Shown piece after piece: positions 32,567 to 59,502 of a stretch of 64,000 nucleotides of DNA (position 1 is its first letter; every line of letters starts with the position of its first letter). The notes beneath the pieces are model-generated. The model saw nothing but the letters and a program-made list of their open reading frames with translations. It had not been told where the DNA came from and searched no databases. The DNA is from Lingula anatina (lineage: Eukaryota > Animalia > Brachiopoda), in contig CM120647.1 of the NCBI GenBank assembly GCA_051362555.1, forward strand, positions 20,312,651 through 20,376,650, given 5' to 3'. The translations under genes and the position numbers were made by a program.

Positions 32567-34314
32567 TTAGACCTTCGGACGAGCAGCGTAAGCCCCTACA
32601 AATTAAAAAAGTGGTTAAAATTAGCTTGAGAGAGAGAGAGAGAGAGATTTAAAATACGGTTATTTAAAGTCAAGGCGAAAAACAACATTGTACTTTTTTT
32701 TCAAAACACCTACAGATTTTTACCACACGCAAACATTCTCAACAACCCTTGGTTTCACACACCGGACACAGATGTTACACTACCAAATTTTGTTTCAATA
32801 ACACAATAAACAGCAAAAACTTTGGCTTTGAAGTATCCCTGAACAGATGGTCATGGACTTACCATATCTATCGCAGTCTGGATGCTTTGTGTACACACCA
32901 GCATCGGCTTTGTCACGAGCGCACGCTGGAATCAGAAGATAAAAACTGCGGTCAGTCACATGAAGCAACAACACGACGTTAAGTTGACGTCTGAGCAACG
33001 CCAAAGCGGTGAATGACGTCACAATGACGTCATGTTTCTTTTGGACAGATTAACCTACGATACTTTGGGAAATAAAGATTTTCTAAAAGAAATGTCGCAC
33101 ATCGGCCTACTCTAAATTTTAGGGCTGGGCGAAGCCACCAAGGAATAGTAATTGCAATGAAACTAATCGTTGGTGAAAGTTTAACCTTAAGCCAAGACAG
33201 AGGAATGCAGGTCCCGTAAAGCAACAAGCCCCGCTCGAGATTACGAACATGTCGTCAACCGACTTTACGATCTTATTTAAAAATATTAACGGTTCAGTTA
33301 TAAAACATAAACGCATATACTCACAGCAGTCGTGAGGGAGCCATCTATCTTTCGATTCATAGTCCGCCAGTTCAACCCCACATTCGTCTACACAATAACT
33401 CCTGGAACGATACAAAGCTAGATTACACCACTGCCCGGGAACTTGCCATACTTTGCCGCCCACTGTTTTACTGTACTTTTTTTGACAAGGATGTCAGATT
33501 ATTTTACTAAACTGTGTTAAGAGAACAGGGTGTGTGCATGCACGTGTGTGAGTGCGTGTACTTGCGTGTGTTTGCGTGCATGGGTATTTGTGAGTTTGTA
33601 TACGCAGTATATATGTGTCCGTTTTTACCTGTAATCGAGCCCTTGTGCATGTATTTACCCCACCTTCAATAATTGCTAACCGCGCTCAAGTCTCTATCTC
33701 AGCATTTTCTCAATCTATTGCGCCGCTCGGTCGTCAAGGTGTTCATGCTCCAACAACTGGGGGTGACTGTCTCTCCGCCACCAACACCAAACAATTAATG
33801 AACCAAGCAAATAATTTCTGCCTCTCCTACCATATTAACAACTATAAATAATATTAGGCGTGAAAATCTCTCAACTCACCCAGCCCCAAGGTACTGCTTC
33901 TTGTCAAACGTGCCCTCAGGGGTACAGATTGGCCGTTCCATGCCAGGCTTTTTAGGTGAAGCGTCAAATTCTGCCTCTTTCTCCTTACACGTTTTGGGGC
34001 ACTGTCCTGCAAACGATTTAAAATACACAAAATTCTAAAAATAAAAAAAGTACCGATGTCGATGTGACTGCAGAATGGGAACTTGTGTTTTCAGGTGTTT
34101 ATAGTGTGTGAAAATTCGACCAAAAAACTAATAAAGCCATGGACAGATATTGCTTTGAAGAACAAAAATATTTCTTCGCAATTGTGAATTTTTTTGGCTA
34201 AAACTTCAAAAAAATTTTTTTCCTTTTTTTTAATTTTCGGTAGTACAAGTATGCTCTTACTATACCTGCGCACACAGCACCAACCACGCAAATGACGACA
34301 ACTAAGAACTTCAT
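32567..34314 (-). CDS. Secreted thyropin-like protein, copy 4, 114 aa
   Basis: Exons 34314-34266, 34006-33880, 33401-33325, 32925-32863, 32595-32567. MKFLVVVICVVGAVCA-GQCPKTCKEKEAEFDASPKKPGMERPICTPEGTFDKKQYLGAGSYCVDECGVELADYESKDRWLPHDCSCARDKADAGVYTKHPDCDRYGAYAARPKV*. Confidence 0.88.
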
Positions 34315-35175
34315 GTTCAACCAGGTATTCTACCAACGTGGGTACTTGTCTCCTTTCTGACGGCTGTCAATGTAACTGGCTCTCTATTCTATGTCCCGCT
34401 ATATAAACTGTACACGTGTTCCTTTAATGGGGCAAGGCATAAAATTATTTGGAGATTACCCGTTTAAGCCACTGAATACCGGTATATTACTCTCAATCAA
34501 GCGTATAATAGCCCCAAATGTAGTAGTCTAATGAAGTGACTAGGAAATACCGACGCACCCGGGACCTCTTTCTTAAAGTATTTTGCCATACGGAGAAACT
34601 AATAGAGAGCCCCTCTACAACATAATTACAATTGACATAAAGTGATGAATCCAATTGAATATAATAACAGTTAAAACGGGAAAATGCTGAGCATTAATTC
34701 GAATGATGTTATATCTAACTTTCATCATTTAAAATTCAAGCTTTCATTCGTTTCTAATGAGATAATATACATATAATTTCGTGGTCATACGGCAATTCAC
34801 GCCCAATACGTTTATCGAGGGTATCTTTAATTCGGACATTAAAAACCGAAACAGCACTGTAATTTCACCGACATTAGTTCCTTCCCTATTTGAATCCTCT
34901 AGTTACCCTTGAATCATCGAGTGTATATAATGACACTATTTCCTCCATTTTTTCTTGAAAGCTTGTTTTTCCATTGAAGCGTGCCCAGCTTCAGTCGGTT
35001 CGCATCGCGGCATTTATCTTTTTTTAATCCCCAGTTCATTAAATCTGTAAAATAAACAATGAGGATTTCAACTCACGAAATCGGGACATTTACAATGGAG
35101 AAGGTTCAACCTTTCCGCCCCCTCCCCCTTTGCCCAGGGGTGTCATTCTAACTCCGAAGACCCCTGGGTTTGTAT

Positions 35176-36721: not shown

Positions 36722-39700
36722 TTATTTAGTTGTTGGTGTAAGGGTTGCCGTGTGTCCATCCCGACAGTGACCCCTGGTCTGGTCACACCTAACACAATAA
36801 GAACAATTATAAATAAGTTCTAACACAGCTGTCACACCTAACACAACGAGAACACGATATTAATTAGTTCTAACACAGCTGTCACAACTAACACAACGAG
36901 AACAAGATATAAATTAGTTCTAACACAACTGTCATCCCTAACACAATGAGAACAAGATATTAATTAGTTCTAACACAGCTGTCATAACTAACACAGTTAT
37001 AACAATTTTATGACACTTTCTCACCTGACACATGGAGAACAGGCTAAATACAAGTTCAAAAATACTGTCACACCTAGCCAGTGATAGATAAGCGACAAAA
37101 CAACTGCCGCCACGGGAAGAAGTTATAGATTAGTTAGTACAAGGCATGAGCAAAATAATATCTTGGTTAGGACAGTAAGCTGACAAAAAGAGTTTCTGTA
37201 TGAAAAATACTAGCATTCCACATTTTACAACTACCGATACTTACTTAACAATAAGAAAACAGTTACAACGGTTGACGTATTTAACCAACAGTTCGTGAAA
37301 ATGTCCCATGTCGGTTGACGTCGTGACTTTGACTTTTTGCCCCTCATCTTTCAATGCTTTGACTTGGTCTGGTGTCAGTCGAACTCTGAAAAAAATTATC
37401 AATTTTGTATTTTATCAATTATATTTTCTATCCTACTGGAAAAAGAAAAGCAACAGCGTCAATTACTTTCCTGTAGTGCATTTTACTTACTATGGCATCG
37501 CAGAAACCTCAGTTTTACTAAAAAAGATAAGCGGGTAGGGCTGCGCGTTGGATCAACATGGATAGAATGGAACGTGACTGTGTATGCGTAACATTGGCTC
37601 TACGATTCCACGGTAGAATAATTAAATCAGTGAAAATAAAATCAATCCAATTTTTAGGTTATAGATTCCAAATAAAGTATCTAATTAATTAATAAACAAA
37701 TACGTGATGAATGATAAATGAATGATCGAATAAATGAGTGAATATTGTTTGAATAAGAATAATAAATATGAAAAACCCCGCTATGTGGAACTTGTATATT
37801 TAGCAACTGACCGACAGCATTTACCTCGTGAAAGTTCTCAGGTTCATACCACAAAGTCTGTCAGCTGCTAAATGTACATTGTAAGTTCCAGTATAGGAGT
37901 TATTCATATTAATTAAATGGACGAATGATAAAAGGTCATTAACATGTGGGAATGATATCCAGGCGGATCCTCCGTGGCGGCCGTCGTCTCCAGCACTATG
38001 TCCCGTTGAAAGGTAGAATTGTCGCCATCCAGGGCGGCTAGAGGCTTCTGGCGATACAAGTCGATGTATTTCCGCTGCTCCATGACCATGTCCTGAGGGT
38101 GGAAATGTTTTGAGTGATATTCGAGATAACTGTGTGTGCGCATGTGCACGTATAACTAAACTCTAAGAATGCATTCAGAACAGCGGAATAACATAGCCGC
38201 GGATCAAATATGGCGACCCACTAAAAAGGCTTGGCTCTTAATTCCCGATTAGACACTGAATAGATTCCCCGCGGGGATTACGGAACAAGAATTCAAGTGG
38301 GTCGGCCATATTTGATCTGTGCCAGTGGATCTGTTTTTCCACTATTCTGAATGGGCTACAACACGTGGGATGCAAGTGTTATTATTCAGTATTAATTAAA
38401 GAACCAAATTTTAAAAATGCATACAAAAGGTACATATATACAGCGTATTCACTTTTATCATTCTTCCGAAAAAATTAAATGTTTCAATAAGACAAAGATA
38501 GAAAGAGTACCCTTTGTCATACCTTCAGAGCTTCAATTTCCTTCATGATGGTGCTGCCCTCTACCGACACGGGCATTATGGGCCATCGTTGACGAATTTC
38601 ACCAACACCATCTATGTTAAGTTCAATTCGGAAACCAGATGCGTCTAGTGATCTCACTTCCCCTAGAACACGTAATATAGATAGATAGATAGATAGATAG
38701 ATAGGTAACAGTACCTAATGACATAATATCGATGGCGCGTTTTGACTGTACTTTTTTTTAATGAAAAAAAAAGCACCTTAATATTAACTCTACTGTGGTT
38801 ATAATAATACATGTAGGCCTACTTATACTACAGTACATTGTGTGCCCAGGACCTACAGACCAGATATCTCACGGCGTTTCAATCATCTCAATTAATAAAG
38901 TGTAACTGTAATTCTTATCATTACTGTACCTTGTCTGTCCAGGACTCCGACGCGAATGTTTCTCATGGTGTAACATTTAACCTTCAAATATTACAAGAAA
39001 AAAACACTGGTACGTAAAAAGAAGACTTTTACGCGTAACTTTAGCTTTTATCATCACTGTACCTTGTCTGTCCAAGACTCCAACGCCTCCATATCTCACG
39101 GTGTCTGCAGCGTCCTTGTCCCCGTTGGTAAAGAACATTTCCACCGGTGTATGGTAGTATAAGGCATCGTTGGTACCATCAAATGCCAAGTTGGCTTCCT
39201 TCTTTCCATTACGGACAGATCCTTTTGAAGGGGGAGGAGGGAAAATGAAATTAATATAGTTAATTGGTGGTACAGATGTAGCTACATGTATTAAAATGTA
39301 CTATTGCAAACTTTGGGGGGCATAAATATCTCTTTTGATAAAAATAATGTGCATATATGTTCTTTAAAAGCGTAGTCTATATACACAAAGAAAAAGCGGA
39401 ACTTGCGGTCTTCACGGCGCAACGGTCATTTGAAATGGAGTCATATCTGAAGTTTCAGCCTTTCAGTATACTTGATATGAATTGGTTCACAGCTTTTAAT
39501 ACAAGGTCTGCCCAAAATCCACCAGACACCTCTCTAAATCCACGGTTCTTACCGTTTGGCCCCTCTCTCACAGTCTTCCCAAGGTCGGACTTGGCGTCTC
39601 CTTTGAAGTGCAGGTTGTAAGGGTTCCAGGAACTCAGAGGCGTTGAATACACGATCTCCAGGGGGATAGCATAGGTCCACTTCTGTTCTACTCTCTCGCA

Positions 39701-42470
39701 TACTGCAACAGAAATCAGATTTTTGTGGCCAGAGCTCGGGGGGGGGGGGTCTTGTAAGTTTGATAATAACACTACATGGTATCTGAGACTTGTGGTGACG
39801 GTATTGGTGGTGTGTAAAAAAACCTGCCATTGTATATGACGAATGTCTTACACCTACAGGTGTGTGTATTTGCCGGGTGTTCGAAAAATATAAACGCAAA
39901 TTTACTCTCTCATGCAATAATTATATAGATAGTGGTATCGTTTGCTAGTTAAAGCAAATAAAAGCATAAAAGCAAAAGAATCTTAATCTGAATAACAACT
40001 TCAAAGTTGCACAAATCGCCGTAGTTATTAACAATCCTTCTCATAATGTACGAAAAATATAATTCACAGCTAACCTTGCTTCTTGGATCGCTTTTTAGGG
40101 CATTCTTCAATCCCTAGGCCGGCCACCTTCTCCTGTGACGTCATAGCCATGAAAATGTTTTGATCCGAGAAACCTCGATGTAACTTCTTGAGGCCGTTTG
40201 CGCCCTGCGAGAAGAAAATGTTTGTTAGTATTTTTTATTATTTATTTTGGTTTAAACCCCTATAATTCTACCAGAGAGACACATTTTAAATGCTTTTAAT
40301 GGTGAACGCATACATCTTGATCGACCTTGATGTCATGTCGCAACCAAACTTGGTCTCGCCTAACGTTCCAACCCTTTCTAAGGAAAGTTCAAAACCCAAA
40401 GAGCAAGACGTACACTTCAAGAGTAGCTTATGCATTTTAGTAGAGAAGAATAAAAACAAGATCGTAAATAAATATCGTCAATCCCAAATATAACGTAACA
40501 AACCTTTTTCGCCACTTTAAACCAGCGATGATAGTAACCGGCATTCAAGACGTCGTTGTCTCTTTCGCCCTGGTCTAAAATTAAGGCCGTGTCACCAAAG
40601 ATGTTGTCCGTCAAGTTTGCGACGTAATTGTCTTTTCCGGGCACCTGTTCCATCAGGTCATCTAGAAAGCTGTGAGCATACACGTGCTCTTCGCCCCAGT
40701 TTTCTTTGTTTTCTGGGTTAAGCTGGAATCTGAAGATATTAAGGAAATGTCATCTGAAAAAAGATGTACGAATATAAAAATTGAGCCTATCCTTAACTTT
40801 GATTCTCCAAAACGAGAAAGTCGCAGCACTGCCATCACTTCACAGCAAGAATTTCTTATCACTCAAATCGGATATCCAAACAAATTTTCAAATGATGGGA
40901 AAATCATTATAACAATCACAAAGCTAGAAAAATAAGTTTGACATTAAAAAAATATTGCTCTAAAAATTCAATGTTAAATCGAGTTATTGAAAAATGTATC
41001 CAAGCCTACCTTGCCCTTCGTGACTCGGTTAGTTCAGCCATGTTGGATTTGTAGGCCATTCTGGAATGAAGGTCGTCCACGGTCCGGAAGTGGCTGAACG
41101 GTATGTCCTGCTTCAGAGGATGACATAATATCCGGTAGTTCCACTGCGCAAGCTCAGGAATCGTGCCGTTGATGAGACCGGAAATGATGACGGGAAGATA
41201 GGCAAAGTTCTCAAGGTTGTCCTTGCGACCAGAAAACGCGCTGAAGCGAGCCTTCTCGTGCAGGTCAAACCAGTCCGTGGCGTCCAAAAAGTGGCGGTCA
41301 CTGTCGAAGGATTCTTCCAGAGATGCTAAAGGAGCATGTTTCAGAAAATGAAAACACTTTCAGATGTTTATGGAACCAGTTAAAATTGATCTAATTGAAT
41401 AAATGCTACATGTAACCTAGTGAACTAATTTCGCCACTGATTGGATATAGTATGCAATAACCTATGGAAATATTTTCCAGAGAATTTTTTAAATGCTTAA
41501 GGATTTAATTCATATTCAAATACTTAACGATGCCTTATGGAAATTCATGAAATGACAGAATCAAAAACTTTTTTTTATAAAATAATATTATCTTTGTTAC
41601 CTGAACTTTTCATCCAGGCTCCTTCTAAGTAACAAAGGTTGGGTTTGAAGTATTTAGTGTAATCTCTGTGAGATTCGTCTTGATTTTTCCAGGCTTTGAA
41701 CCACTCCTTCATCTCCGCTATCTGTTCCTGCACCGTGGCTTTATCCGTTACCTGAATTAAAACAGATTGATATATACACAAAGATATATACACAAAGAAT
41801 GAAAAAAAATGACACACAAAAGAATAAATGAAGTGACAGAGAAATAAAGGTAAAATAATACATTGATAGGACTAAGGCTTCTGTACTGCGTCCATTATAA
41901 TTTTGCACATTTGAACTGACATTAAAATTCTTGGTAGATAATATTAATAAATTAATAAATATTATCAGAAAACGATGCCAACAGTACCTCTGATGGCACA
42001 TCAGGGAAAGGGATATCCTCCGTGCAGTGAAAATCTTTGCTTCTCCGGCATGGCATGACGAACTTGTAATCGTTATGTCTGGTCCGGAACTCCACCCCGT
42101 TCAAGACGGCGACGAACTCTCCCATCCCTATGGTGCGGTCGTAGTTAGCATGGTTATGAATACTGACGGCGCTGTTACCGGTGTACGTCGTGGAGTGGTA
42201 CGGCCGCGTGCCTGGAGAGACAAACTTTTAAGCTTGAAAAGTTTGGACCTAACGGAGCCTGCGTCGGAAATTGCCCCTTTGTTAAAAGGCAGAAGAAGAA
42301 AAAAGAGAAGAGAAATAAAAGAGAAATAAGAAGAATGAATTTACAACTTACAGACCTGCTTGGCTGCGCTGCAGATGATTTTTTTTGTAATAATTAAACA
42401 TGGATTGGCACTTATGAGTAATAATTCTACTCCTGGTAGTGACGAGAGAGAGAGAGAGGGAGAGGGAGGG

Positions 42471-42532
<62 letters not shown>

Positions 42533-43834
42533 GAGAGAGAGAGAGAAAGAGAGATAGATATAGAGAGACGGTCACGACAGCATGGTGACCATACCAAAAT
42601 TTGTGAAAAAAGGAGAAAAAATTAATGCCATACTCGAGACGCAAAAAGATCTCAGTCACTGTAATTCAATTTTATGTTATGGATAATGTTTTTGGTTTAA
42701 CATTATTGATATAAAGAAGAATCGCTTTTTGCTAGGAGTCCTAATATACGATGCCGAATTGGTGACCGAAAGGTTACGCAATTACCGCTACTCACAATGT
42801 ATACGGGCCTACAGAAATATAAATGTACGCCATGTCGTTAAACTTTTGACACTGAAATACAGATGAATCACATCATTAAACGTTTGGTATTGAACCGAAC
42901 AATACATTTAACCAATTATCAAGCCAAAATTAAACCGCCCGTTTACTGGTCTCTTAGAGAAATCAACGGGGAATGGTTTTTGATATTGTAAATTTGACAT
43001 TGGTTTGTCTTTACTAACAATTAAGTTTTGCGCAGCCCCTACATTGTACAAATGATTCTCTTGCTGATACGGGTTTTATGGAAACAGAAAGTGGTTAATT
43101 AAACCTTAATTCGCCACATAATATGTTCAATGATTCTATTAAAGCTGACTTCAGTCGTTTATAAGGGCACCCAGCATCGATAACGTTTTGCGTAAATTTC
43201 TCTACTGGCTCTGATTTAAACTCTCCTGTATTTTGCCTTTTCACATCATAACTCACCGAAATAACAAACAAACCACCGATCAGACCAATTAACTTGCGAA
43301 AAAAATTTTCTCTAGTGAACAAGTTTATTTACAGGGGAGAGTCACGTCACATTCCAGGGGCGGATCCAGGATTATTTGAAGTGGGGATCCGTGCATGCGA
43401 AGCCGATCTACTCCCCCCCTCCTCTTGCCGAGGGGTTCTAAAATTTTGGTATTTTAGAGGGCGAACGGTGCCATTTGGTACGGTTTAGAACTATGATTCA
43501 GCTAGTCAAAAGTCTATTTTCAAGACAGAAATCGAAGGTGGGGGGGGGGGGGGGGAGGGTCAGGGTCCCCCTGACCCCCACCCCCTCTAAATCCGCCATT
43601 GTTGGGGTAAGTGTATAAAAACTCACCGTCCGTCTGAAGTCTGATCTGTTTTATCCCCGAACTCCCCTCAGACCGTATTCTTTCCTCAACAAACAGCTGC
43701 TGCATGATAAGTTGCCTTCCCAAGGCTGCCACTGTGCCTTGGAGTTGCCGTATCGTCTCTGAATCTTTGTCGGCCACGGCGACACCCAGGATGTTCCAAG
43801 AAGCCAGGAGAATTAAATATAAAGCCGAATGCAT
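36722..43834 (-). CDS. Uncharacterised secreted protein, gene A (12 coding exons, 686 aa)
   Basis: Exons 43834-43627, 42211-41988, 41751-41601, 41325-41010, 40729-40504, 40204-40075, 39702-39553, 39221-39063, 38662-38523, 38092-37944, 37385-37245, 36788-36722 (2061 nt, in frame). Signal peptide MHSALYLILLASWNILGVAVA. Motifs IHNHANYDRTIGMGEFVAVLNGVEFRTRHNDY, CYLEGAW, QWNYRILCHP, WTYAIPLEI, PPGYHSH, GHFHEL. Exon-for-exon homology with gene B. Confidence 0.9.
38160..38360. mobile_element. Small hairpin MITE in a gene A intron; related copy at ~51625-51735 in the opposite orientation
   Basis: Inverted arms cattcagaa...ttctgaatg and gatcaaatatggcgacccact...agtgggtcggccatatttgatc. The block tatggcgacccactaaaaa..ctgaatagattccc recurs as the reverse complement in a gene B intron. 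Confidence 0.6.
42445..42568. repeat. GA-rich compound microsatellite
   Basis: (GA)n interrupted by periodic GGGAGAGGGAGGG blocks. Confidence 0.85.
43355..43601. mobile_element. CAG(G/T)GGCGGAT-terminus MITE with G-runs
   Basis: Ends CAGGGGCGGATCC...AAATCCGCCATTG form an imperfect TIR; same family as 54852-55071. Confidence 0.6.
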
Positions 43835-46810
43835 CTTTTTAAATATCTGAAATGTAAACAGAATCGAAATTTCAGCTTGTTAATAACTGTGTGCACACGT
43901 AATCCACAAGGTACAGTGTTTAAATCATCGCCGGTTCAATGCAATTTACCACTTCGTAGCAGATTTGGTATCTGATTCATCGGCAAGTTGATACATGTAC
44001 CAGTAGTCCTATCAGATTAATGCAAATTTTACCTGCGGTTTCTTAGGACATTTTGCCATTTAGTGCAGATTACATCTCTGAACAAGTTAAATTTTGATGC
44101 GGGCTTATAGTTTTTCGAGGACCGCAAGTGTAAATGACCAAGGTTGGGTACCAGAATGAAATAATGAAGATATTGGTGAATAAATAACATTTATAACCAA
44201 TATCCCGACGCATATTTAAGTAACTGAAGGACTAAAGAATTGACGAACAGATTGATAAAAACTCGAAATAACCAATGTTCTGCTGCATTTTATAAATCTA
44301 AACAACGGCTTGTTTCAACGTCGCGCGAATCAAATCTGCATTTGGAAATTAACGTGTTTAACTTCTCCCATTTCTCAAAATGATGCTCCTGAAATCGTTA
44401 TCCGGGAGTCCCCGCGGATTTGGATAATATATAATTTCATTGAAAATGAGCCCATTTTTCCCCCCACATAGAAATAGGTGCATGAGACGCCCCAAACATA
44501 CGTTAAAAATTCGTAAATCATATACCCTGTAGCAAAGACTTATAGGAATGTAAGTTACAGTGTCGTAATAAAAAATGATGATTCTAAAAGGAAGGAGAAT
44601 CGTGACAGTAAAAAGACCTCAGGCTGCGTTAGACAAAACCCAATATTTCCCTCTACAAAGGCCACAGGGAATTCCTTTTTCTCCTTCATATTCACATATT
44701 TTCTCTGATTTTTTTCCTGCACTTTTCTGTGCTGTGTCCAGTGAAAGTGTTCGGAAAAGAAAAACAAACAAACAAACAAACAAACAAACAAAAACAAAAA
44801 ACAGACCTACGCCTTGTACCCTGTATGCCTTTGTTTTCCGACTTACATCTTGTATGTAGGTATAAATAAGGCAGTAATCTGAGTATAAAAGAAAATTGTG
44901 TCTTTAGTTATAAAGACTTCCCTTTTTATTTACACTGACCAAAAAGATGGGAATTATCTTCCATGAACACAATGTTTGGTATTTTTCAGAACAATGCCAA
45001 TTTGGTATTTATATCAAAAGGATGGAACTGTTTTTACATGAAAACATTCGTCAACTTGGTAAAGTTGAAAGGATGTTTGAGTGCTTGAGATAGCCTAACT
45101 GTTTTCGAACACATTGCTAGCTTGTTGAACAGTGCTCATTGCATTGACCCTCCCCACTAAAAATATGGACACAAACGCCTTTGCCATGCAAAAACTGTCT
45201 CGTCCCATCACCGGTAGACCTACCACCATGTTCGCTGACTCAGTCTCCGTCTTCTTTCTTAGCCTCTTTCTCTCTTTTTCTCTCTTCCGTTCAGTTTCAG
45301 ACGCTAATATCCCACAAATCACGCCCGTGTGAGTAATTATACATACCCGTATACGTGATTACCTGTTCACTTTCTCCTCGTAATTCGCAGCTGATGGTAG
45401 GCACACAGTTATGTTGAGCACGCCTTGACTCTTTTCATGGGCCTTCCTCGGTAAAAATCGACCAACGTAACTTTTGATGAAAAGCAACGGTGCCTGAACA
45501 ACCCTAGCGAAAAACCATGTCTGTCGCACTGGCAAACTGATCGTGTATTTCTAACCAAAAATTCGTTCAGTTATCATATAGTCAGCGAAGACACGTGTAT
45601 AATAGGCCTAACGGCAATTGTACATGGTGCCTCTGTCATACAAATTTTAGAGATTTTCAGAAACTTTCTGAGCGTTCCCGACCATGAAGACATCCCCGAT
45701 CCCCTCACAAACTGGTGAACATGATATGCAGTAAGTTTGCCATACTTTGTCCTTTTGTACAATTATCTTATCTGTGTAACACTTATTATTTTGGAACCCG
45801 TCGCCTCGCAATTTTACTGTCAATCAATTGGTTTACCTGCGTTCTATTTGTAAGAACTTTGGACTTTCTTGTTCTTAAATCATGTTTATGAAACCAGTAA
45901 AAGAAAAACATTATGCCACATCGCGCATACCCCCAGAAGAAACCAGTTAGATGTTGATATTGTTTCATGGTTTTCATGAATTGATAAAGTAACGTTTAAA
46001 ATTATGGGGGTTGTCGACTGAACATTCATTGCACCATAGCGTCTGTATCTAGAATAGTAAACACATAATATTTAAGTTACAGCATGGGATTCCTTCGTTA
46101 TTCACTCTTTACTGTGCACAGCATTTAAGGCACTGGACTTGTAAATCCTTAGGCAAGTAAACAAAATGTTAAAATGTAATAAAGGGTCTTTTTCTGCGGA
46201 TCGTGATCCGGTGTAATGAAACTGAGGGTCGGTGTAACAGAAAGTCTGTCTTCCATTTTATTGTGGTTTTATTGTGCGAACAGAACGTTTCCTTACAATC
46301 AGTTGTGTTAGCATTAAATATGATTGAAAATAATATAAATGCAAAAGTAAAGGTGCAAAGAGTTAGAATGAAATCCATAAAGACATTCAGTGTGTGGAGA
46401 ATATTACATTATTTGCAAATTTTAGTAGAATTTTTATAACTGGATTCCTCCTTTTTCCAGGGTAGTGATGAAAATGACAAAGGTTGATTGTGTCAGCCGC
46501 GTGACGAATGACTAACAAAAATCACCTGTCATTCAAATGAATGTTTTATTCAAGAAAATATTGTTTTGCCAATACAGTTCCCCTTGATTTAATTTGCTGT
46601 ATCACATTTAGTGATGCAGCTCCAGGTATCTTTCAGTTCACAAAATGATGAAAATTCAAAATCAAATTTCAAAAAGACAGTTCTGAATATATAAACTTTA
46701 TATATCGGATGTACTCGTAGAGGGACCTCATCCCCACTTCAGCTTCCATCAAAAACACCTTGCACATCTGTAGTTGTCGCTGCCAGCAGTCGCGTGTCAC
46801 GAGCGTCACG

Positions 46811-47790
46811 TCATACTTCTTGGAACAGCTCCATCATGTGACCATCCCAGCATTCAGGTTGCTGGTCACACCTGGAACGAAGTTTCTTTTTATAAACTCA
46901 TATAACAATGGTTACATATTCATTGAGGACTAATTAATCTTACAGCGTTATTTTTTGGCCGTATAGTATAAAACAAATAAATACATTATTACGTAGGTCC
47001 TACTCAGCACACATATTTCCAGTTGGCTTTCTCAGCTTCTACTTTTTTCATTCATGTAATTCATATTACCACAGAAAGCGGGGTTTTAATGTGTGTGTGT
47101 GTGTAGGGGGGGGGGGGGTAGAGGGGGGTGGAGGGGGACAACATATCCTATCGCTTTTTTTCTGAATGGTTAACCCCACACACACACTCTAGATCTCACA
47201 CATACGTAGACCACCGCCACCACCACCAAATTCCAGAAAAATTCTTGAATTTTGCTTCCTACTCGCCTCATAAAAAAACTGACACTGTATATCTACCTCA
47301 TTATCTCGTAGCAGCCGCAGTATTTATCATAGCGCAGTCTCAGGGAGTGGGAGTGGCCCAGAGCCTCACTTGTTGTCACAGTAAACATCTCCCCAGCCTC
47401 GAACCTCGTCTGTTCCTCTGGGCTCAGCACAACTCTGAATAGACGGAAGGGTGGGGTTTGTGAGTGGAATTGGAAATGGACAAATAAGTACTATGAAATT
47501 AGATAAACTATTTAATATAAAAGATGGATTGGTTAGAAAGAAATAAAAGAGTAAAGAAAGGAAATATTAGCTTTATCAACATTATTTGATCAACTGCAAC
47601 AATCAACGATTCAAAACGTTTAGAAAGAAATAAATTTTCAGAACTATCTGCAACAAATAGTCACGTGGAGTTGACATGAAATTGCAGCTAAAATACATAA
47701 CTAAGCTTTAGGGTGGAAAAGCATTAATTCCTGGTTCATTACAATCAATAAGTTTGTTGATTTGCTTTCCATTTAGATCCAAGGCATCGG

Positions 47791-47847
<57 letters not shown>

Positions 47848-50800
47848 TACTCGTGGAAATGTTCCCCTGGAGGATTCTGGGTAGTTGTAGAAGTCGTCAG
47901 CAACAGGTCTGTTCCTTCCACTGGCACGGTAGTCGTGCCGCCCCCTTGCGGCGGATCTCGGTACATTTTGATGTAACGGCTTTGCTCCATCAGCAGGTCC
48001 TGGAATGTAGGTCAATATTGTTCACGTGATGCAGCTTTCAACCCTGACATATTAGTAAATATCGCTACTTTTATCGACACATAAGTATATGTTGATGACG
48101 TCATAACTCGCACACTGCGATGCAAGATTTGTAGACGTTTTAAAGAATTGCTGATTTTAAACAATTTTATGTAATGTATTTCTAGTGTTTTGTAGAAAAA
48201 AAAGACATTAAGAAAATGCATAACCAATTTTTTTCTTTTATTTAAATAAATTGTTTTGAGAATACGACAGAAGAATTTGCAAGAACATTTTAAAGAAAAG
48301 AGAAAGGTTTAGTTAACCACCTAATACAGCCCGCTGTAGAAATGACCTCGGTTCGCAAAATGTTAGAAGAAGAACAAAACTAAAGCGTACACATAAAGAC
48401 ATGCTTGGTATTGTCACAGGTAAACATGAATTCTTACCTTCATTGCCTCCATTTCCTTTTGTATATTACTTCCGTCGGTTGTCAAAGGATAGATGGGGTA
48501 CCGTTGGCGTATCAGTCCCACATCGGGAATATTAATAAATACACGAATACCAGAGGAACTGGTGATTTTTACCTCACCTAAAATGGCAAAAAGAACATTT
48601 TTGTGTAATATGAAGAAACAATTTGAAATTTCTTAATGGAATTACACATCACTACAATTGATGACGTTGCATCTCCCTATTGGATAAAAATACATTGCAC
48701 GGTCTGCTAATAATGCAGATGGAGAACGGCGCAACGTCATCAACTTAGTACCTGGTATAATACATATATACAGTATATATATGTAAGTTTAGTAAACATA
48801 GTTTTAATGCAATTTATTCATGTGAATAGCGACTGAGCGATAAAACTGGACAGTATGATTTAGGTAACACTTGAAATATGTACAAGGCGTGTTGTTGCTG
48901 GTACACATTAATGAGCATCAATACTATGAATATCAATGCCGCTAAGAAATAATTAATTAATGAAATAATAACCGCATTAATGGTGCTGCGGGTCTGACAA
49001 TTTCTACAGGTTGCAGGTTGCTTCAAGCAATGGCGATGACTGATAAATTAAGTAAAAGAGGGTAGAACAGAAACTTACGCCATCTACTGTACGTATTTTT
49101 TCAAAGCTCTGCATTAATATGCTAATATGTATATAACAATGACAAGGACCTTTTTTCAGTCACAAAAACGGAGAATTAAAAACAAAAAAGATTTCTCGTA
49201 CCGTTTTGGTCGAGGACTCCCACCCCTTTCCTAGTGGTGTCCGCTGCTCCGGCTTCCTGGGAGGCGAAGAACTCATTCGGCGTCAGATAGTACGTGTATT
49301 CGTTGACGCCATTGTATGCCTTCTCCACTGTCTGAGCGCCCGTCCTAAGCGTTCCTGCTCAGAGAGTTTAGCCACACATTACATTTTATAAAGTCGCTTA
49401 CTTGTATGATGTCCTTTGTGCCCTGCTGTATACTGCCATATAAGTGCATTAAGTAATATAATATAATATAATATAATATAATATAATATAATATAATATA
49501 ATATAAATTTCAGGCTTACCATGTTCAGTTATCAATTGAAACTGTATCTTAATAGAGTTTACATTCTGATAAATGGCATTGTGACGAAGGAACAACAGCG
49601 ATTGACTTAAAATGCTCATCATAATCTCATACAACTGTATGTATTATAAGCTCCAAACAGGAAATGCATTTTGTCAAACGTTTACATTATGTAATAAAAC
49701 TTCCAAACCGATCTTAATTTCGCAGTATGAGACCCTTTCTTCCATAACATATGTGATGTTTCATATTTTGCTATTGATAATCGGCATTTTGAAGCTAGAT
49801 TTAAATACGATTTAAATACGAAACAACGCATTAGGGCATGATCAAGCTACGTATATATATAATGCTAAAAGACTGAGTTGTCAAAGAAAGCTCAGGAAGT
49901 TGAGTGCCATCGATAGCGACTAGTCAGTCACGTGATCAAGACAAGCTTAATCTTGGGTAAAGCATGCCTCACAGACAAGAAGCACATTTAGTTTCCTCTG
50001 GAATGATTTACTTTTTTGCCATCATTTACAAAGAGGCAATGAGAAACCTGCACCACCAATAATGCAATTATTTTATAACACTATTGCCACCCACCGTCTT
50101 CCGCCCTGACCACCATTTTATCCGGGTCTTTTCCCCAGTTTTTAAGGTTATAGGGGTTCCACAAGCTCAGCGGTGTCAAATAAATGATTTCCAAAGGTAT
50201 GGCATACGACCATTTTTGATCAGCCCATTTACAATCTGAAAAAAAGAAGAAAACCGGAAGGATCGAGTCAGTACGTTTACCGTTGAATATGATAAAAATA
50301 TTAGCTATGATCTCCAAAGTTATGCCACAGGCCCATATCCATCACCCACCACGCAGGAAATATATCGTGAACTGAAGTAGAGCAAGTTTTTGGTCTGTTC
50401 ATTGAGACAATTTTTAGGGAAAAGATTGTAAAACAGGTGCCAAGTCATGCGCCCAATCTGCCATTGCCGCAGGTGCGAAACGGGTTAATTAATTTTAATT
50501 AATTAGGTGAATTTTAATCTTTTAAGATTAAAATTCACCTAAACCATTTACACCGGCCATTGCTGCAATACTTCTCACGTGAACCACCTACCTCTGCCGT
50601 TCTGGTTACACTTCTTAAACGTCATACCGACGACCTCGTCTTTATCTGTCATGGCCATGAATACATTGGCATCTGAATAGCTGCGATGACGAGTTTTCCG
50701 GCCGCTGGCACCCTGGCAGAATATTATTGAAGAATTGTTCCAGAAACAATAATAAACGTAAATTACATTCTGGAATGTACTTGGTAAATTTCAATGACGA

Positions 50801-53574
50801 ACCGACTTTGTGGTCTCCCCCTGAGTTGAATCCTAAAATAACGTATTCGATAAATTCACTTAGTAATGGCTCAATCCTAATGAAACTATCGGTCTAAGCA
50901 GTTTAACGTACTCGTAAAATCACCAGCTTTACTGTTCAACTCCATGAGGAAGCGTGTTAATCCGTTAACCTGTTTGCATTCCGCGAGAGTCACCGTGAAG
51001 TTGGATCGAGGTACATAGACCGATAGTTTCTTTGGGAATAGTTTATTTACAGCAGAGTTGGGGCGGGCACAATATAGCATATAAACAATACGCCCTTACC
51101 GCTTTAATAACCTGATACCACCGATGATACCTGGCGGCGTTGAGCATCACTTCCGTGCCGTTCTCCAGAGGCTCCAACTGGTAAAATGGCTCGTCAAATA
51201 TGTTATCTTCCAGATAAGCAGGGTAGTTATTCTTGCCGGGGATCTCTTCCATGATCTGGTCCAAGAGGCCGGTCAACCCGCGGACGAACAGGTGCTCATC
51301 CGGCCAGAATTTGGAGTTGTCCGGGTTTAATTGGAACCTAACACAATGGATATTTGTATGGAAATATTAATTGTCCATGTTTAATTGTGGCCTAATTGAC
51401 ACAATGGATATTTATATGAAATACGCAGTGTGTAAATAACAGCAGCTTCTGTACATAGTCGTCTGCTATGTGGTACATAGGCCCAATATAAATAGAAAAG
51501 AAGAATAGCCCCGTATCTAGTTTCGGTTCCATCAACAGTTGAAATGATTTTTTTACTCTGAATACCAAGGCGAATCATGACATGAAAACTATGGCCGCAT
51601 TCAGAGCATGGCAGACCCATTTAAATACTTCCCCACAGGGAATCTATTCAGTATCTATTAAGGCATTAGACGGCAAGCTTTTTAGTGGGTCGCCATACTT
51701 ACCCCGCGGACTAGCTAGTCCACTGTTCTGACTGCAGCCTTTGAGTATAATTCATCCTGTAATTATTTTCAGTCATCAAATTCACTCATCTACCCACTTT
51801 TCCTCACCGTTGTTTTCTACTTTTCAGCCATGTAACATCCATGTCCATCTTGCATGTACTTTATACTGTATTTTCACCTTAGTCTCAGCCACCTAAAAAC
51901 TCTCATTCACCCACCCACAATCACTCATCTTCACTTTCTTTCAACCCCCAATCTCTCCAGTCAACCAACCTTGCCCTGCGCGTCTTCGAATGCGTCTCAA
52001 AATCGCTCTGGTAGGCCAGCCTGGAGCCGAGGTCATCACGCACCCTGAAGATCGAGGTGCTGATGTCTTTGCTGATCGGGTGACACAGTATCCGGTAGTT
52101 CCACTGCGCCATCTTGGGAATGCCGTCTGTGATGTTCATCACGGCCACAGGAAGAAAGGCGAAATTCTCCAGCTGGCTCTTTCGGCCCGAGTAGGAGGTG
52201 AAACGGGTCTTCTGGTGAAGGTCAGCCCAGTCGGTCGCGTCAAGAGCGTGACGGTCGCTTTGGAAGGACTCCTCCAGTTTACCTATTGGTGGCGAGGAAG
52301 GGTTACGGTGAAGAGACCATTCTCAGATTCTATCGTACTAACTTTAGCTTGAATTATCTTCAAGGGGATTCTCGCGTAATTGCAAATAACTTAAGCGGCT
52401 GAGATGTCTGTCACGCCTACCGAAGCTGATAAATAAATAAAATAAAATAAATAAAGTAAATATTAAGAGATTAATTAATTAAGTATTGTACTTATTAATT
52501 TTGGATATATTTTCTTTACCGTCTGGGCTTATCTTGGTCCACGTGCCCTCCAAATAACACATGACAGGCTTGAAGTACTTCCTGTAGTCCCGCACATAAC
52601 TGTTTTGATCACGGAATGCTTTGAACCACTCCTTCATTTCTGCTATCTGTTCCTCTACCGTCGTCTTACTTGTTACCTGTTAATAAAAATATAGTATCAT
52701 TAGTTAAGTACTCATGGGTACATTACTCCACCAAGAAAGTGCAATTCTCATTATTAATCAATGAATTAATTGTAATAACTGCAATATTAATGATATTTTT
52801 AACAAAAACAATAATGATGGCAATAATAAATGTTAGTAGATTCACATTAACTTTTCTATACTTGCGGCCATTATCAAAATGTGTTTTACTTATTATTATT
52901 ATTTCAACAAAACAGAAAATATCTAATAAGTGTGAAAGTTTTGGTTGGTTTTCGTTTTCAGAACCGACGAATACATAAAATATAACATAGCCTATAACCT
53001 TCATTCTCCATATCAAGATTTATTCCTTCATCATCATTTTTATTTTGATATGTTTTTTGTCAATGATGTTCTGGATAATTTTATTGTTAAAAAATGAGTC
53101 AAACGGCGCCTCATTATAGCAGCTAATTTCATGTGGGACTCCACTATTCAAACAGCTGTCTTTATGAATGTGATCGTTTTGAAAAGGAAACAAATTTCTA
53201 AAGCCTTTATGCCCCTATGCTGTTTACAATCCCAGAACAACCCTGATGATCAGCAAGGTTCTATGGAGGTGTTGGAAAGCCAGTCTTTTTCTTTTCTGTA
53301 TGAGTTGTAGAGTAATATTCATTATTTATTATTGCAACAAATTCCTCAAGCTGCAAAGCTAGTTTATATGCTAGGATTGGGGGCTATTGCGAACTCTTCT
53401 CAACGACCAGAAAATATTCGTGTATGTAGGGAGTAGGCCTATATGTATACCGGGCATTGTAGAATTTCTATCACAACTCTGAAACTCAGGGTGTTTTTCA
53501 TTTATTCAGTTATAGATATGAAAAACGGGAGGATGTGTCTTGGTGCATAATTGTGAAACTGTGGCTCCTCTTTA

Positions 53575-53607
<33 letters not shown>

Positions 53608-53751
53608 ACGCTAGTTTTAAAATAATTTCTTTAAAAGACATGCCCTTCCTGATGAAAAAAAAAAAAAAAAAATCGCCGTAATATATAACGTTTTAATTTC
53701 AGTGTGGAATATTTTGTCAGCTGATTGAAAACAGAAATATTTTCTAACACA

Positions 53752-53805
<54 letters not shown>

Positions 53806-55733
53806 ATGATCACGTCCTCCAAAGACCAGGGCATGCTTTTGACCACGAAATCACCTCTCTTAACACTTGTTTGGTGAAGTACTTCAATTTATTTGCTAAC
53901 TCGACGTTTAAAAAGTCCTAAAAAAAGAGCACCAAAAACTTGTACAAATTAAATTTTTTGTGAACTTCTCGACAGACCTCTAAAAAGATATCCTTTAAAA
54001 TTTCGAGAGAATACGCATGCGTCAATTATACTGACCTCTGGCGGGACGGGCGGGAAGGGGATGTTCTCTATACAGTGATAAGACTCATCGCTTGTACACG
54101 GCATGACCAGCTTGAAGTCGTTGTGCCTGGTCTTAAATTCGACCCCATTCAAGACGGCGGAGATCTCCCCCATGCCCACGGTTCTATCGTAATTAGCATG
54201 ATCGTGGTAGGCTGCTACGCTGTCTCGCACGTGGGAGGGCGTGTGATACGGGCGCGTGCCTGAAAATAAAGATCTTTTTAAATTTTCTTATTTTCGTGAA
54301 AACGAGGGCCGAATTTGAAGGTGGAAGTTGGATGGGCGCACCCAGTAAAAAATATATACACGCAAAACTCACACGTAAACGTTATGCACGAATGTACTCA
54401 CACATGCTGTTACCGTAAACAAATGCACACATACACAAGCATACATTCAGGCAAGATCACATACACACGCACGTACGCGCACAAACAAACCGGAACACAC
54501 GCACATACACACAGGGAAACCTGAGGCAGGATAAAAAATAACCAATGGTGTTTGGTGAATCAAACTGAAACCAACCTAATATCCCCCAAAACATTTTCAT
54601 GTTAAAATTGATCATCTGATCTCAAGGTGATCTTTTTTTAAAGTAGTCACAAAAATATAACCTTAAGCAAACACTCGATAGCCTACACATAAACGGACAC
54701 TGATTTTAAGAGTGATTTCTTACCGGCAATATCCATTCGAATCTGCTTGATTCCAGACGCCCCGTCGAACCTCGCTTTCTCCTCTACTATCAACTGCTGC
54801 ATCATCAGCTGGTTTGCTAGGAGATCCACCACGTTCTGGAAAGATGAAAGGCAGTGGCGGATTTCTAAATAAATCACACCAATAGTGCCCTCTTGGAATT
54901 AGGTCCCCTGTAGAATTTTCACTAGCTGAACCATACATGTAGGTCCAGGGCCAGTAGGAGGGGGTGGGGGTGGGGGTGGGGGGGGGGGGGTCCAGGACCA
55001 GCTTCGCTTCTGAGGCCTGTCTTTATAAAAACCGGACACCCCCCCCTTCAAATAATCCTGGATCCGCCCTGAAGGGGGTTGCTATTTGTCAAATATGATG
55101 TGCAATATATAGTTATCAGGAAATATTCAGAACATTTAAACGGGGATTTGAACGGAGTTAAGAGGAAATTTTATATCCAACGTGGTTTGAAATTTATTCT
55201 CATAATATTTATAAAAAAATATGAAAGAAGTAAATTTAGAGGTAATTTTCAGTCAAACATGATTTACAACTAATCATTATCAATGAAATGATTTAGCGTC
55301 GGAACAAAAAGTTGAATGAGATAAGAAAATTGTGAGGTAAACTTTATTTGTAACCTATCCTTATTATTTATTTAAGCAGAAAAAATTGTGAAAAGAACAA
55401 TGATATAAGCAACATTTTCTCTCGTAAAAATAACTTCAACCGATATTTTAATAATGATTTAAAAATGCTACCAAATTCGACATCGTTTTAAAGAGATGGA
55501 AGTTGGCAAGGCAATATCGTTAAATAACCGAAAATAAAACAGTTTACAAAACCAGACAATTACTTACGTTGGCATAGTATTCCCACTTAATTAATTATCT
55601 TTACCTTTAAATCTTGAACCATAGAACTTATCTCTGACAATGTAGGTGACGCCTCAGCGTCCTGGCTCTTGACATTGTGGATGACCACAGCCATGAGTGG
55701 TAAGAGAAGACTCCAGAGAAATTGCGTCTTCAT
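46811..55733 (-). CDS. Uncharacterised secreted protein, gene B, paralog of gene A (13 coding exons, 691 aa)
   Basis: Exons 55733-55605, 54835-54724, 54259-54036, 52676-52520, 52282-51970, 51337-51100, 50712-50592, 50235-50095, 49354-49202, 48577-48438, 47999-47851, 47434-47297, 46871-46811 (2076 nt, in frame). Signal peptide MKTQFLWSLLLPLMAVVIHNVKS. Motifs YHDHANYDRTVGMGEISAVLNGVEFKTRHNDF, CYLEGTW, QWNYRILCHP, PPGEHFH, GHSHSL, CDQQPECWDGH. Confidence 0.9.
47790..47846. repeat. (ATT)n microsatellite next to a gene B donor site
   Basis: About 19 ATT units; source of the spurious poly-Y and poly-N ORFs. Confidence 0.9.
54852..55071. mobile_element. CAG(G/T)GGCGGAT-terminus MITE with G-runs
   Basis: Ends CAGTGGCGGATTT...GGATCCGCCCTG; lies ~15 nt from the exon 2 acceptor of gene B. 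Confidence 0.6.
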
Positions 55734-56906: not shown

Positions 56907-59502
56907 CTAAACTTGATGAAGACACATCCGCACACAGCCTCTACAGACCACATCCCCGAACCTGTCCAAGAGTGTAGGCCAGATGTATCTCTCTATTATG
57001 GCGGTGGCGTGAGAGCCACAGACATCATTTTCCACTGCGTGTTTGATTCCGCTGTATACAGTATCCTCTGCATCGAGGATCAAATGGTTGTTAATTATAC
57101 GCCAGGTTGTTTTTAGACATGAGTCAATGTATGCCAGAGTCTGCGTAAATTGTGAAATATCCTTTTCAGATGACAGCGTGGTTTTTTCAAGTATTTGCTG
57201 AAAAGCAACACAAAGACGGGAATGTAAATTTGAAATGCAAGCAACGTAAGTGTTATACTTGAAATGTAAGAACAAATAGTTGGATTACACATAGTGCTAT
57301 GGACACATCAAGCTTAGCATGATATAAGTGTATGCATTGGTCTTGTAAGACTTCACAGTAAGACTGGCGCTTTCGGTACTGTAAAATAAAAACCTTTAGT
57401 ACTACAGATGCAGAAAATAGACTATCAGTGTGTCTGTCATACATTAAGGGTGGTGGTAGTGAGAGCTTACGAGCTACAGACATTTTAGCTATTTAATTTT
57501 TTTTTGTATTCATAGCGCCTGCTATATACCGGTGCTCACTGTCACCTTTATTCATAACATGCCCTATTACCTCGCACAAATCGGCAAAACTTGCCGTATC
57601 GGTATCAGCTAGGTCTGCCCAAAAGATGAAAAGCGACTCCTCAAGCCAAGGTGGTAAAGTTCTTTTCTTCTCCTGATAAAAACAAAAAAAAAAAAAAAAA
57701 TAAATTGCCATTTCCAATGAAGTGACGTCATGTATTGGACACCATGTGATTTTATTTTGTTTGTGACGTCACATATTTAGCATTGTTTGCGTGACGTCAT
57801 ACATTCAAATGACGCAAAAATGCCATGTCACGGTGTCACATATAATTATAAACTATGTTAACTAGTTTTGTCGCTCTGAGCTGAAGTATTTTAATATAAA
57901 GCTACCATATGCAATACCTGTAAATTTACTTTTTCACGACTCACCTGTTTTTTACCTCCATTCCCACCAAACGGTTGTAACAGTGGTTTGATGAAATGTT
58001 CCTCCCTGTGTTGGATCACAGCAGCATAAGAGGCCTAATTGGTAGCCGTGAGCAAACAAACAATTTAATTGATAAATAAATTTAAAAAATGATAAAATAA
58101 ACATATAAAAAGGAAGAAAACATAAGTGGTATTACACAGAAGTTATAAACAAAATTAGTTCTAATAGAAATGTTTGACTTCATTTCAGAATCATGAACTG
58201 CCGCCGATTGAAACCTAGATATGGGTGTTTCTTAAGAAAATATGTTATTTACAGCACAGTAGCATATTCAGAGCATATAGATTGCACTCAGCATATAGTC
58301 TATAGTAGTAATATGTGTGTTTAACATTCAAGTTTAGATATAGGTTATTTTGGCAGGTCCATAATTTTAATTAGTTAAAAACTAAAAGACTGCAATGAAG
58401 GCAACTGTATTGTCTGTGTTGACCTTATCTCGGCAGTTATAATACATGATTGACTGACTTTACCATGAGTATATCAAATAGAATACGGTCCATGTCAAGG
58501 TCACCACGGAGGTTATTCAGCTCAAGACGAGCCTCTTTCCATTGTATGTTCTTTAGACTTAAGTATTCCTCCTTTGCAGCATGGACTCGCATTTGTTGGC
58601 CTGTCACTGTCCGCGTGATCGGATCACTAGAAAAAAGAGGAGAAAATCCATGTAAGCAATTTTAAAAATTAAAATTGATAGGGGTTATTCCAAAGTATAC
58701 TTTCACTTTCACATACATGTACAGTCTTTGTCATCCGACCAATTTTTTAAAAATCTTTTTATATCCTGATAAATAAGACAAAAAAAATACATGTAAGCAA
58801 AGTATCTATAGTTATCTTAATTTGTAGAGGTAGACAGAATAGCGTGGTGTCGCAGAAGTATTAATAAAGGGAAAGAAACGTCTCAGAGTACCTCGAAAAA
58901 TACAGTGTATAACTTAAGTTGGCCTTTTTTCACCTAAAATGCTTTCGAACTCAATATTATTCCCGAGTATCTTAATCCTACCTATTACGTGTAGTATCTG
59001 ATTCCTTTGGTTTCAATCTTCTGTAGACATTGGTAAAAGTGATTTCATGTTCTGTCAACGAAGGCGTGTAAGAGACCCGTACGAAACCACTCCGTCTTTG
59101 AGAACGCCTAGAAGTTGCTGTCACTCTCGTTGTTGTCGTTCCTGGTTTGTTCTTGGTGGTGATGACGTTTTCTGGATGAGTTGCTTTTTCTTGTGTTTTG
59201 ATGAGATTGTTTTGAGCGGGTCTCGGCTTCGGGTTCGTGGCAAGAGCATTAGGTTTGAGAATTAGTTTGAAAAAAGATCTTACACCCGTCGCCTCTTTTT
59301 TCTCGTCCTTCTTTTCATTCTGGCTCAAACTTATATTTGCATTATTTCCTGGAGTCGACGTGCATTTGGGTTGAGTCCTGCTTAAGTCAGGGCCAGCAGC
59401 AGTGAAGCTTATATTATGGCTGGCAGACGCTGGCGTGTAACTAACCCGCAATAAAAGGTTTCTTTTCTTGTCGCCTCCGGAAGAAGAAAACCCAGATCCC
59501 AT
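56907..59502 (-). CDS. Protein with a mitochondria-eating protein (MIEAP/SPATA18)-like C-terminal domain, gene C (5 exons, 388 aa)
   Basis: Exons 59502-58982, 58626-58464, 58034-57945, 57672-57571, 57197-56907 (1167 nt, in frame, GT-AG). C-terminus YIDSCLKTTWRI...H...YIWPTLLDRFGDVVCRGCV fits the MIEAP C-terminal pattern (Y..C...W...Y.WP.L...G....KG.V). N-terminus MGSGFS. Confidence 0.72.

Follow-up and report, generated by a model that had tools for sequence, protein, structure and literature searches.

Tandem paralogs of Lingula anatina encode predicted secreted proteins with a core homologous to a domain of phage tail fibres

The brachiopod Lingula anatina carries two complete and intact paralogs, gene A and gene B, on the minus strand of a 64,000-nucleotide stretch of contig CM120647.1 (assembly GCA_051362555.1, positions 20,312,651 to 20,376,650 of the forward strand; the whole stretch is called the window below). 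Together they occupy window positions 36722..55733 and were spliced by coordinates. The family to which they belong is uncharacterised, and the core of its members is an uncatalogued domain of about 520 residues without a clear fold match. A preliminary description of the locus, made from the sequence letters, had reported a pair of uncharacterised secreted proteins; the key fact beyond its view is the homology of the core to a domain of phage tail fibres.

Gene structure and protein anatomy

Gene A (46811..55733) encodes 691 residues in 13 coding exons (55733-55605, 54835-54724, 54259-54036, 52676-52520, 52282-51970, 51337-51100, 50712-50592, 50235-50095, 49354-49202, 48577-48438, 47999-47851, 47434-47297 and 46871-46811, the last with the stop codon). 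Gene B (36722..43834) encodes 686 residues in 12 coding exons (43834-43627, 42211-41988, 41751-41601, 41325-41010, 40729-40504, 40204-40075, 39702-39553, 39221-39063, 38662-38523, 38092-37944, 37385-37245 and 36788-36722, again with the stop in the last). Every intron is of the GT..AG type and both frames are free of internal stops; the ends of the interval, 55733 and 36722, are exactly the ATG of gene A and the stop of gene B. The two proteins share 342 identical positions over 703 alignment columns, and their intron phases are the same from the second conserved exon ('GTRPYH') on (1,0,1,2,0,1,1,1,0,2,2). The tandem pair with matching exon boundaries that had been described at the outset is thus borne out, and all 10 motif patterns given for it as conserved occur once per protein.

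The protein of gene B matches Lingula anatina XP_013397467.1 at 98% identity. The RefSeq models of close relatives begin six residues before the start of gene B, and the acceptor site at 43846 suggests an exon upstream of the annotated start. Residues 156-691 of gene A are 95% identical to the N-terminal half of P0111, a fused model whose C-terminal half matches gene B; because its halves match A and B in turn, the tandem is present in other Lingula data too. P0111 (Lingula-type, 1236 residues) and P0171 (Paramuricea, 1420 residues) are database models that fuse two tandem paralogs, and these fusions are likely annotation errors. P0171 places tandem pairs of family members in an octocoral as well.

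Eight of the 11 junctions of gene B are among the joints listed for four RNA runs from the same species, with 17 further joints beyond those listed for the gene. Most of the reads are 90-99% alike, and paralogs or alleles therefore contribute to the signal. Coverage of gene A was very low in eight RNA runs, in which one of its 12 junctions was found (48577/49202; five reads from two runs). The window also contains tandem segmental repeats of about 5 kilobases, 80-90% alike, between about 6500 and 37000. Three of the repeats carry a copy of the last exon of gene B on the minus strand (31085-31002, 25980-25897 and 12033-11959), beside which no other exon of the gene was found.

Both proteins begin with a hydrophobic stretch, and all later 19-residue windows have a mean hydropathy of at most 1.3. 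By this crude hydropathy test, which is not SignalP, signal peptides are predicted at about residues 1-24 of gene A (55662..55733) and 1-21 of gene B (43772..43834); the two proteins are likely secreted, as had been proposed. In gene B the predicted signal peptide is followed by a long, coiled-coil-like helix (about residues 22-56; 43667..43771), placed from an AlphaFold2 model of P0001, a protein 95% identical to gene B (mean predicted local distance difference test score 84.8, predicted template-modelling score 0.77). The helix spans residues 27-62 in that model and agrees with the short coiled-coil-like segment of the preliminary description, and its end (EERIRSEGSSG) is conserved in phage fibres. 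The core is a large globular domain in the model. It covers about residues 44-572 of gene B (38081..43705), as delimited by homology to the phage tail-fibre domain, and about residues 55-580 of gene A (48438..54835), as delimited by an alignment to the fibre P0386.

A His module forms the C-terminus of both proteins. In gene A it comprises about residues 605-691 (46811..47915), with H623-x-H625, H653-x-H655 and C673...C679-x-D-G-H683, and in gene B about residues 598-686 (36722..38005), with H615-x-H617, H646-x-H648 and C666...C673-x-D-G-H677. The tail had been called His/Cys-rich; five His and three Cys are indeed conserved in it, but it is not a His-rich tract.

The eukaryotic family and its relatives on phage tails

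With one exon as query, 109 related proteins were retrieved, and a profile of 70 of these found 1,613 representatives (50% clustering, E≤1e-3), the best 150 of which provide the eukaryotic rows used below. Most rows are nameless and were called eukaryotic by rank and architecture. Named members come from cnidarians (stony corals, anemones, octocorals and Hydractinia), annelids (Ridgeia, Lamellibrachia, Paralvinella and Owenia), gastropods, bivalves, the nemertean Tubulanus and Lingula itself, and from two protists, the choanoflagellate Hartaetosiga and the diplonemid Diplonema. Lingula has several copies, as do stony corals, for instance Oculina. The named members from cnidarians and spiralians are conserved at 40-55% identity. 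A hydrophobic N-terminus was scored by the same crude test in 178 of 208 full-length eukaryotic members versus one of 47 prokaryotic ones. Longer members, non-animal-like ones among them, carry added collagen, ShK, EGF or plastocyanin-type domains. A copper-redox role, raised by the plastocyanin-like fusions, was considered and not adopted, Copper-bind having scored in only one of 17 scanned multidomain proteins.

The statement that no characterised family could be assigned holds after database searches. Pfam gave nothing above cut-off on 14 window exons or 70 members, and PHROGs nothing above cut-off on the same 70; NCBIfam on 10 proteins returned collagen and coiled-coil noise only. Sequence searches of the PDB with three alignments gave zero, zero and nine matches, the nine being coiled-coil chance matches. 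Foldseek of the P0001 model against the PDB found nothing at E≤1e-3, and the ESM Atlas gave no match for the whole protein. Literature on the family was not found by identifiers, motifs or topic in a search whose scope lay outside subscription journals and bioRxiv supplements, and members could be listed in proteome tables under other identifiers.

The combination of AlphaFold and Foldseek that had been recommended as a check drew a blank in the PDB, and its best match among viral models (BFVD) was gp431 of phage G (E 3.8e-33, template-modelling score 0.60, 23% identity over 585 columns). Phage G was also the only match of a tblastn search in 50,697 cultured-phage records (26.8% identity, E 3e-29). 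By hhalign, the animal alignment matched gp431 with a probability of 99.9, and the animal family profile matched 42 prokaryotic proteins at E 3.3e-85. Alignment with the fibre P0386 gives 32% identity both for gene A (538 columns) and for gene B (558 columns). Residues 490-1013 of gp431, used as a query, retrieved 47 proteins that include 'phage tail proteins' of Pseudomonas and Pseudoalteromonas; P0390, among these matches, is an animal-type member. The link of the gene A/B core to phage tail fibres is solid.

Peptide patterns derived from the animal proteins found no relative in IMG/VR or GTDB, whereas patterns derived from the 42 prokaryotic proteins did match, yielding 10 GTDB, 65 IMG/VR and 31 metagenome loci, many of them redundant. 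The PF12571 tail-collar-fibre N-terminus precedes the core in five of 41 scanned matches. Neighbourhoods were described with Pfam on 107 neighbouring open reading frames (ORFs) from 11 loci. In five of them (L004, L007, L013, L045 and L048) a gene with PF12571 plus core follows the baseplate genes, in the slot of P2 gpH; in L006 the gene at this slot appears split. In L010, L029 and L035 the core gene lies one to three genes past gene I, and in the lambda-like L070 it follows the tape-measure gene. No Pfam match was obtained among the neighbouring ORFs of L037. Small profiles built from these neighbours found co-oriented tail genes in 54 of 75 GTDB and IMG/VR loci. On plasmids the domain was found only in pTM2 of Tistrella mobilis, as a 'phage tail protein'. 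The proteins of genes A and B have the homologous domain of the fibres' C-terminal part, lack PF12571 and are encoded by spliced animal genes outside any tail operon. Thus, they are not themselves tail fibres and share with them an uncatalogued domain.

Several further features were observed at the phage-type loci. In pTM2 a complete contractile-tail gene set, whose fibre bears the core domain, lies between housekeeping genes (L078:10825-24253); no head gene is annotated within a 25-kilobase stretch, and the cluster is tailocin-like. The genes directly after the fibre at six loci (L013:12192-13010, L045:12125-12934, L010:11921-12871, L006:12149-12661, L007:12169-12858 and L070:12106-13251) often begin with a helix and have no Pfam match; four share a short motif and the two others share the N-terminal 60 residues. 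Their products may attach to the fibre as a second set of receptor-binding proteins. In L029 and L035 (L029:12491-15497 and L035:12473-13576), a gene of the formylglycine-generating enzyme (FGE)-sulfatase type lies two genes beyond the fibre, with a Pfam match in L035 and 54% identity of the L029 gene to it. A reverse transcriptase adjoins the gene in L029, and the gene looks like the target of a diversity-generating retroelement. In phage G, the region just upstream of gp431 holds four giant paralogs (gp424-gp427; L001:1-17350) that bear BNR and Ig-like repeats.

Conservation reaches at least 85% at 46 positions both among 132 eukaryotic and among 47 prokaryotic representatives. In gene B numbering these include four His (H88, H90, H115 and H206), seven acids (E101, D117, E187, E233, D389, E434 and D508) and eight Arg (R54, R65, R114, R205, R259, R385, R545 and R547). 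The motif H88-x-H90...E101...H115-x-D117 (42071..42158) would be the main part of a predicted metal site, and the fourth His is borne by the motif S203-x-R205-H206 (41291..41302). The full signature of 11 His, Asp and Glu residues is found in 270 of 344 eukaryotic rows and in 97 of 119 prokaryotic ones, counts that take in fragments and near-duplicates; 16 prokaryotic rows are gapped over its first eight positions, likely through alignment failure. Some animal paralogs (Physella, Paralvinella) have lost the signature and kept the structural motifs, and in this they resemble inactive copies of enzymes. The stretch H88-x-H90...E101-x6-G108 resembles motif 1 of the cupins, but the spacing differs and no cupin is among the Pfam, Foldseek or VIA results; this candidate was not adopted.

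The His module follows the pattern HxH...HxH...CD...CxDxH, and 259 of 344 eukaryotic rows have all of its HHHHCCH residues, whereas the module is missing from 52. A profile built from eukaryotes matched 43 prokaryotic rows, 30 of them at E≤2e-4, and no reversed sequence. The prokaryotic version is inserted in the middle of the core and has five His and no Cys pair. Thus, the same module is joined to the same core at two positions, C-terminal in eukaryotes and inserted in some phage fibres, which suggests a functional link through metal. One phage fibre (L076, ORF starting at 622) has two His modules: the first precedes the core on its N-terminal side and the second is inserted within the core. 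In the ESM Atlas, residues 603-692 have YmaF clusters as their nearest neighbours, and the ten best named matches all share that family or clan; the score of 0.86 lies below 0.9 and provides a lead only. Two HxH motifs and one further His stand beside strands in the models, as checked for a YmaF-type hairpin. When the module was modelled on its own, the prediction was confident over the His-bearing part and had no match in BFVD or the PDB (best Z 3.3). Pfam YmaF (PF12788) did not match any of 70 family members or the module-only proteins P0169 and P0175.

Trees of the core divide the sampled sequences in two. FastTree separated 46 eukaryotic from 31 prokaryotic cores by one branch (support 100), and the same split was obtained with IQ-TREE under a mixture model for 25 eukaryotic and 21 prokaryotic rows (Shimodaira-Hasegawa-like approximate likelihood ratio test 100), a set that left out 10 prokaryotic rows, long-branched or near to rows that were kept, and 21 eukaryotic rows. 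Sampling was biased toward the two seeds. Fourteen named or window animal rows group at 99, as do gene A, gene B and another Lingula paralog. Comparison of the core model with known structures by VIA gave Z values within the noise range of the tool (3.5-4.9 in the top ten). The best is 4l92 (Z 4.9, root-mean-square deviation 4.8, 156 residues aligned), and eight or nine of the top ten are baseplate, adaptor or receptor-binding proteins of phages or contractile systems; the rows concerned are 4l92, 1yu0, 2wzp, 9h7v, 5m30, 7b5h, 2xc8, 6n38 and 9h5b.

Possible function and direction of transfer

The reading tentatively preferred here, held with less than even confidence, is that the products of genes A and B depend on a metal to bind and cut a polymer of the bacterial surface, and that the family probably goes back to an early transfer out of phages. 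The preliminary description had suggested a metal-binding or catalytic protein, which is now likely: a His/Asp/Glu set that is nearly invariant between distant members, eukaryotic and phage, is present, and the tail is a unit of repeated HxH motifs with a YmaF lead. The steps that this reading would involve are given here from the most to the least confident. The predicted metal site would be formed by the invariant His and acidic residues, and the HxH module would bind or supply the metal. The protein may be a trimer assembled via its N- and C-terminal helices; phage fibres are generally trimers. The metal site would hydrolyse or de-esterify capsule, exopolysaccharide or a similar anionic polymer, tail fibres being the parts that contact the bacterial surface. 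Animals and protists would release the protein into mucus or onto surfaces, where it could handle food bacteria or control microbes. Lastly, the transfer would have run from phage to eukaryote; in animals the signal peptide would have taken the place of the baseplate anchor, and Cys pairs would have been added.

A number of observations weigh against this reading. No member has a known activity, ligand or substrate, and without a match to a solved structure there is no catalytic mechanism to draw on; a metal-dependent binding site would account for the invariant residues as well as a catalytic one would. Further domains follow the core in P0382-P0384, L029 and L035, so that it is not always the tip of the fibre, and at many loci the next gene downstream encodes a second receptor-binding-like protein; the core may thus be a platform. 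The phage proteins nearest to the animal ones lack the His module. Gene A is near-silent in the eight RNA runs. Finally, the trees are unrooted, and intermediates may lie beyond the best 150 of the 1,613 representatives.

A more specific version, in which eukaryotes domesticated a tail-fibre metalloenzyme of a new fold before the cnidarian-bilaterian split, and corals, worms, molluscs, brachiopods and marine protists secrete it to strip or cut bacterial surface polymers, is doubtful; if true, an animal weapon or digestive tool would have been taken whole from a virus of bacteria.

Rather unlikely is a non-catalytic adhesin or lectin, which would bind glycans in a metal-dependent manner or serve as a trimer scaffold and with which animals would agglutinate or recognise microbes without cutting. 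The tail-fibre position of the core fits this possibility, as do the top VIA rows, mostly baseplate, adaptor and receptor-binding proteins, and the ILEI domain that gp431 also bears. However, those Z values fall in the noise and a small sequence test of the link to the receptor-binding-protein 'shoulder' failed. About 19 near-invariant charged or His residues over 500 residues would exceed what is usual for a simple adhesin, and host-binding tips usually diverge fast, whereas this domain is conserved across phages of Gram-positive and Gram-negative hosts. Because of that near-invariance, which includes the four His, seven acids and eight Arg, a catalytic site for an anionic polymer would be likelier than a fast-evolving host-range tip.

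With regard to the direction of transfer, the depth of the phage side and the weak fold leads from VIA argue for passage from phage to eukaryote. The core was likely acquired from a phage before cnidarians and bilaterians split, and a single transfer may be compatible with the unrooted trees. The reverse, in which phages took up a secreted protein of old eukaryotic (or unseen bacterial) origin as a module of their tail fibres, is unlikely. It would agree with the span of the family over animals, a choanoflagellate and a diplonemid, with the position of all sampled eukaryotic rows on one side of one branch, and with the rarity of the phage version (10 GTDB loci and one cultured phage). Conversely, the phage side equals the eukaryotic one in depth and extends over P2-like, lambda-like and jumbo-phage contexts, and such fold leads as exist, all of them weak, are to tail and baseplate proteins of phages.

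Metal capture or buffering, in which the His site of the core and the HxH module would chelate Fe, Zn, Cu or Ni, is quite improbable. On phages it would amount to a 'Trojan horse' metal bait, and in animals to scavenging, detoxification or the withholding of metal from microbes. There are precedents on phage fibres: iron is bound by HxH motifs in the tip of T4 gp37, and in marine phage fibres such motifs have been proposed as metal ligands (PMC11705849). The YmaF-like module on the core at two positions also fits. However, a protein of 690 residues would be a poor sponge for about nine conserved His, and the invariant Arg, Ser and Asn would go unexplained. HxH motifs of the T4 type are placed on a thin trimeric needle, as opposed to the large globular domain found here.

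Biomineralisation or adhesion, given as examples in the preliminary description, is very improbable as a structural role: the likely secretion, the many copies in Lingula and stony corals and the His and acidic residues that could bind mineral would suit it, but neither protein has low-complexity or acidic tracts, and the domain is present in non-mineralising Nematostella, Actinia, Tubulanus and sacoglossan slugs, in a choanoflagellate and a diplonemid, and on phage tail fibres. The family motifs were absent from the skeletal-proteome supplements of PMC13425148, PMC4595640 and PMC7533068, a weak negative since these files may list identifiers only.

For this family, the homology gives the first functional clue, with the bacterial surface as the likely target and a metal site of four His as the likely mechanism. 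It also newly defines an uncatalogued domain common to phages of Gram-positive and Gram-negative hosts, for which phage G gp431 and its host are available as a cultured test system. If it is catalytic, the domain would found a new class of enzymes on phage tails and add a new component to the mucus-microbe biology of corals and other invertebrates.

Other features of the window and comparison with known systems

Each of the segmental repeats seems to carry a small secreted Cys-rich gene (33122-34329, minus strand, with copies near 28255-29324). It presumably resembles a thyroglobulin type-1 domain, and Pfam found nothing on its single ORFs. An apparently intact long interspersed nuclear element occupies 19526-25114 on the minus strand, with a 1241-residue ORF2 (endonuclease, RVT_1 and zf-RVT) and a 328-residue ORF1-like frame. 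An exon at 56910-57284 (minus strand) matches the MIEAP domain (E 6.5e-8) and is part of a gene upstream of gene A.

Among known systems, the closest are fibres of the P2 gpH type, for which Pseudomonas sp. TCU-HL1, the 'phage tail protein' of Pseudoalteromonas tunicata and WP_014752772.1 of Tistrella mobilis were compared. They have the same core, with 29-33% identity to the nearest matches, and the same near-invariant His/Asp/Glu/Arg set, and the Pseudoalteromonas-type fibre has the HxH module as well. In the animal proteins, by contrast, a signal peptide replaces PF12571, introns and extra Cys pairs are present, and the His module is C-terminal rather than inserted. The C-terminal half of phage G gp431 (G3MAH2; Bacillus/Lysinibacillus) matches the core in both structure and sequence. 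It differs in its length of 1013 residues, its tail-protein-like N-terminus, its ILEI domain and its lack of a His module. In the supplement of PMC12484599, gp431 is listed as 'Hypothetical'.

YmaF (PF12788), a family with repeated HxH units, has the clusters nearest to the His module by ESM Atlas features; the module differs in having five His and, in eukaryotes, a Cys pair. The 'shoulder' beta-sandwich of TssK and lactococcal receptor-binding proteins (4l92, 5m30 and 2wzp, with Mtd, 1yu0), a fold with an N-terminal helix, the sandwich and a C-terminal helix, aligns with 110-180 residues drawn from both ends of the core, but about 350 core residues are unmatched and the Z values (3.6-4.9) are within noise; hhalign with a tiny alignment of five sequences found no link by sequence. 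In animals, the intramolecular chaperone domain of MYRF is a phage tail part, and so provides a tail-fibre module that works in animal proteins. That domain is unrelated to the core described here, and, unlike MYRF, the mature proteins of genes A and B would consist almost entirely of the phage-type domain, which they share with protists.

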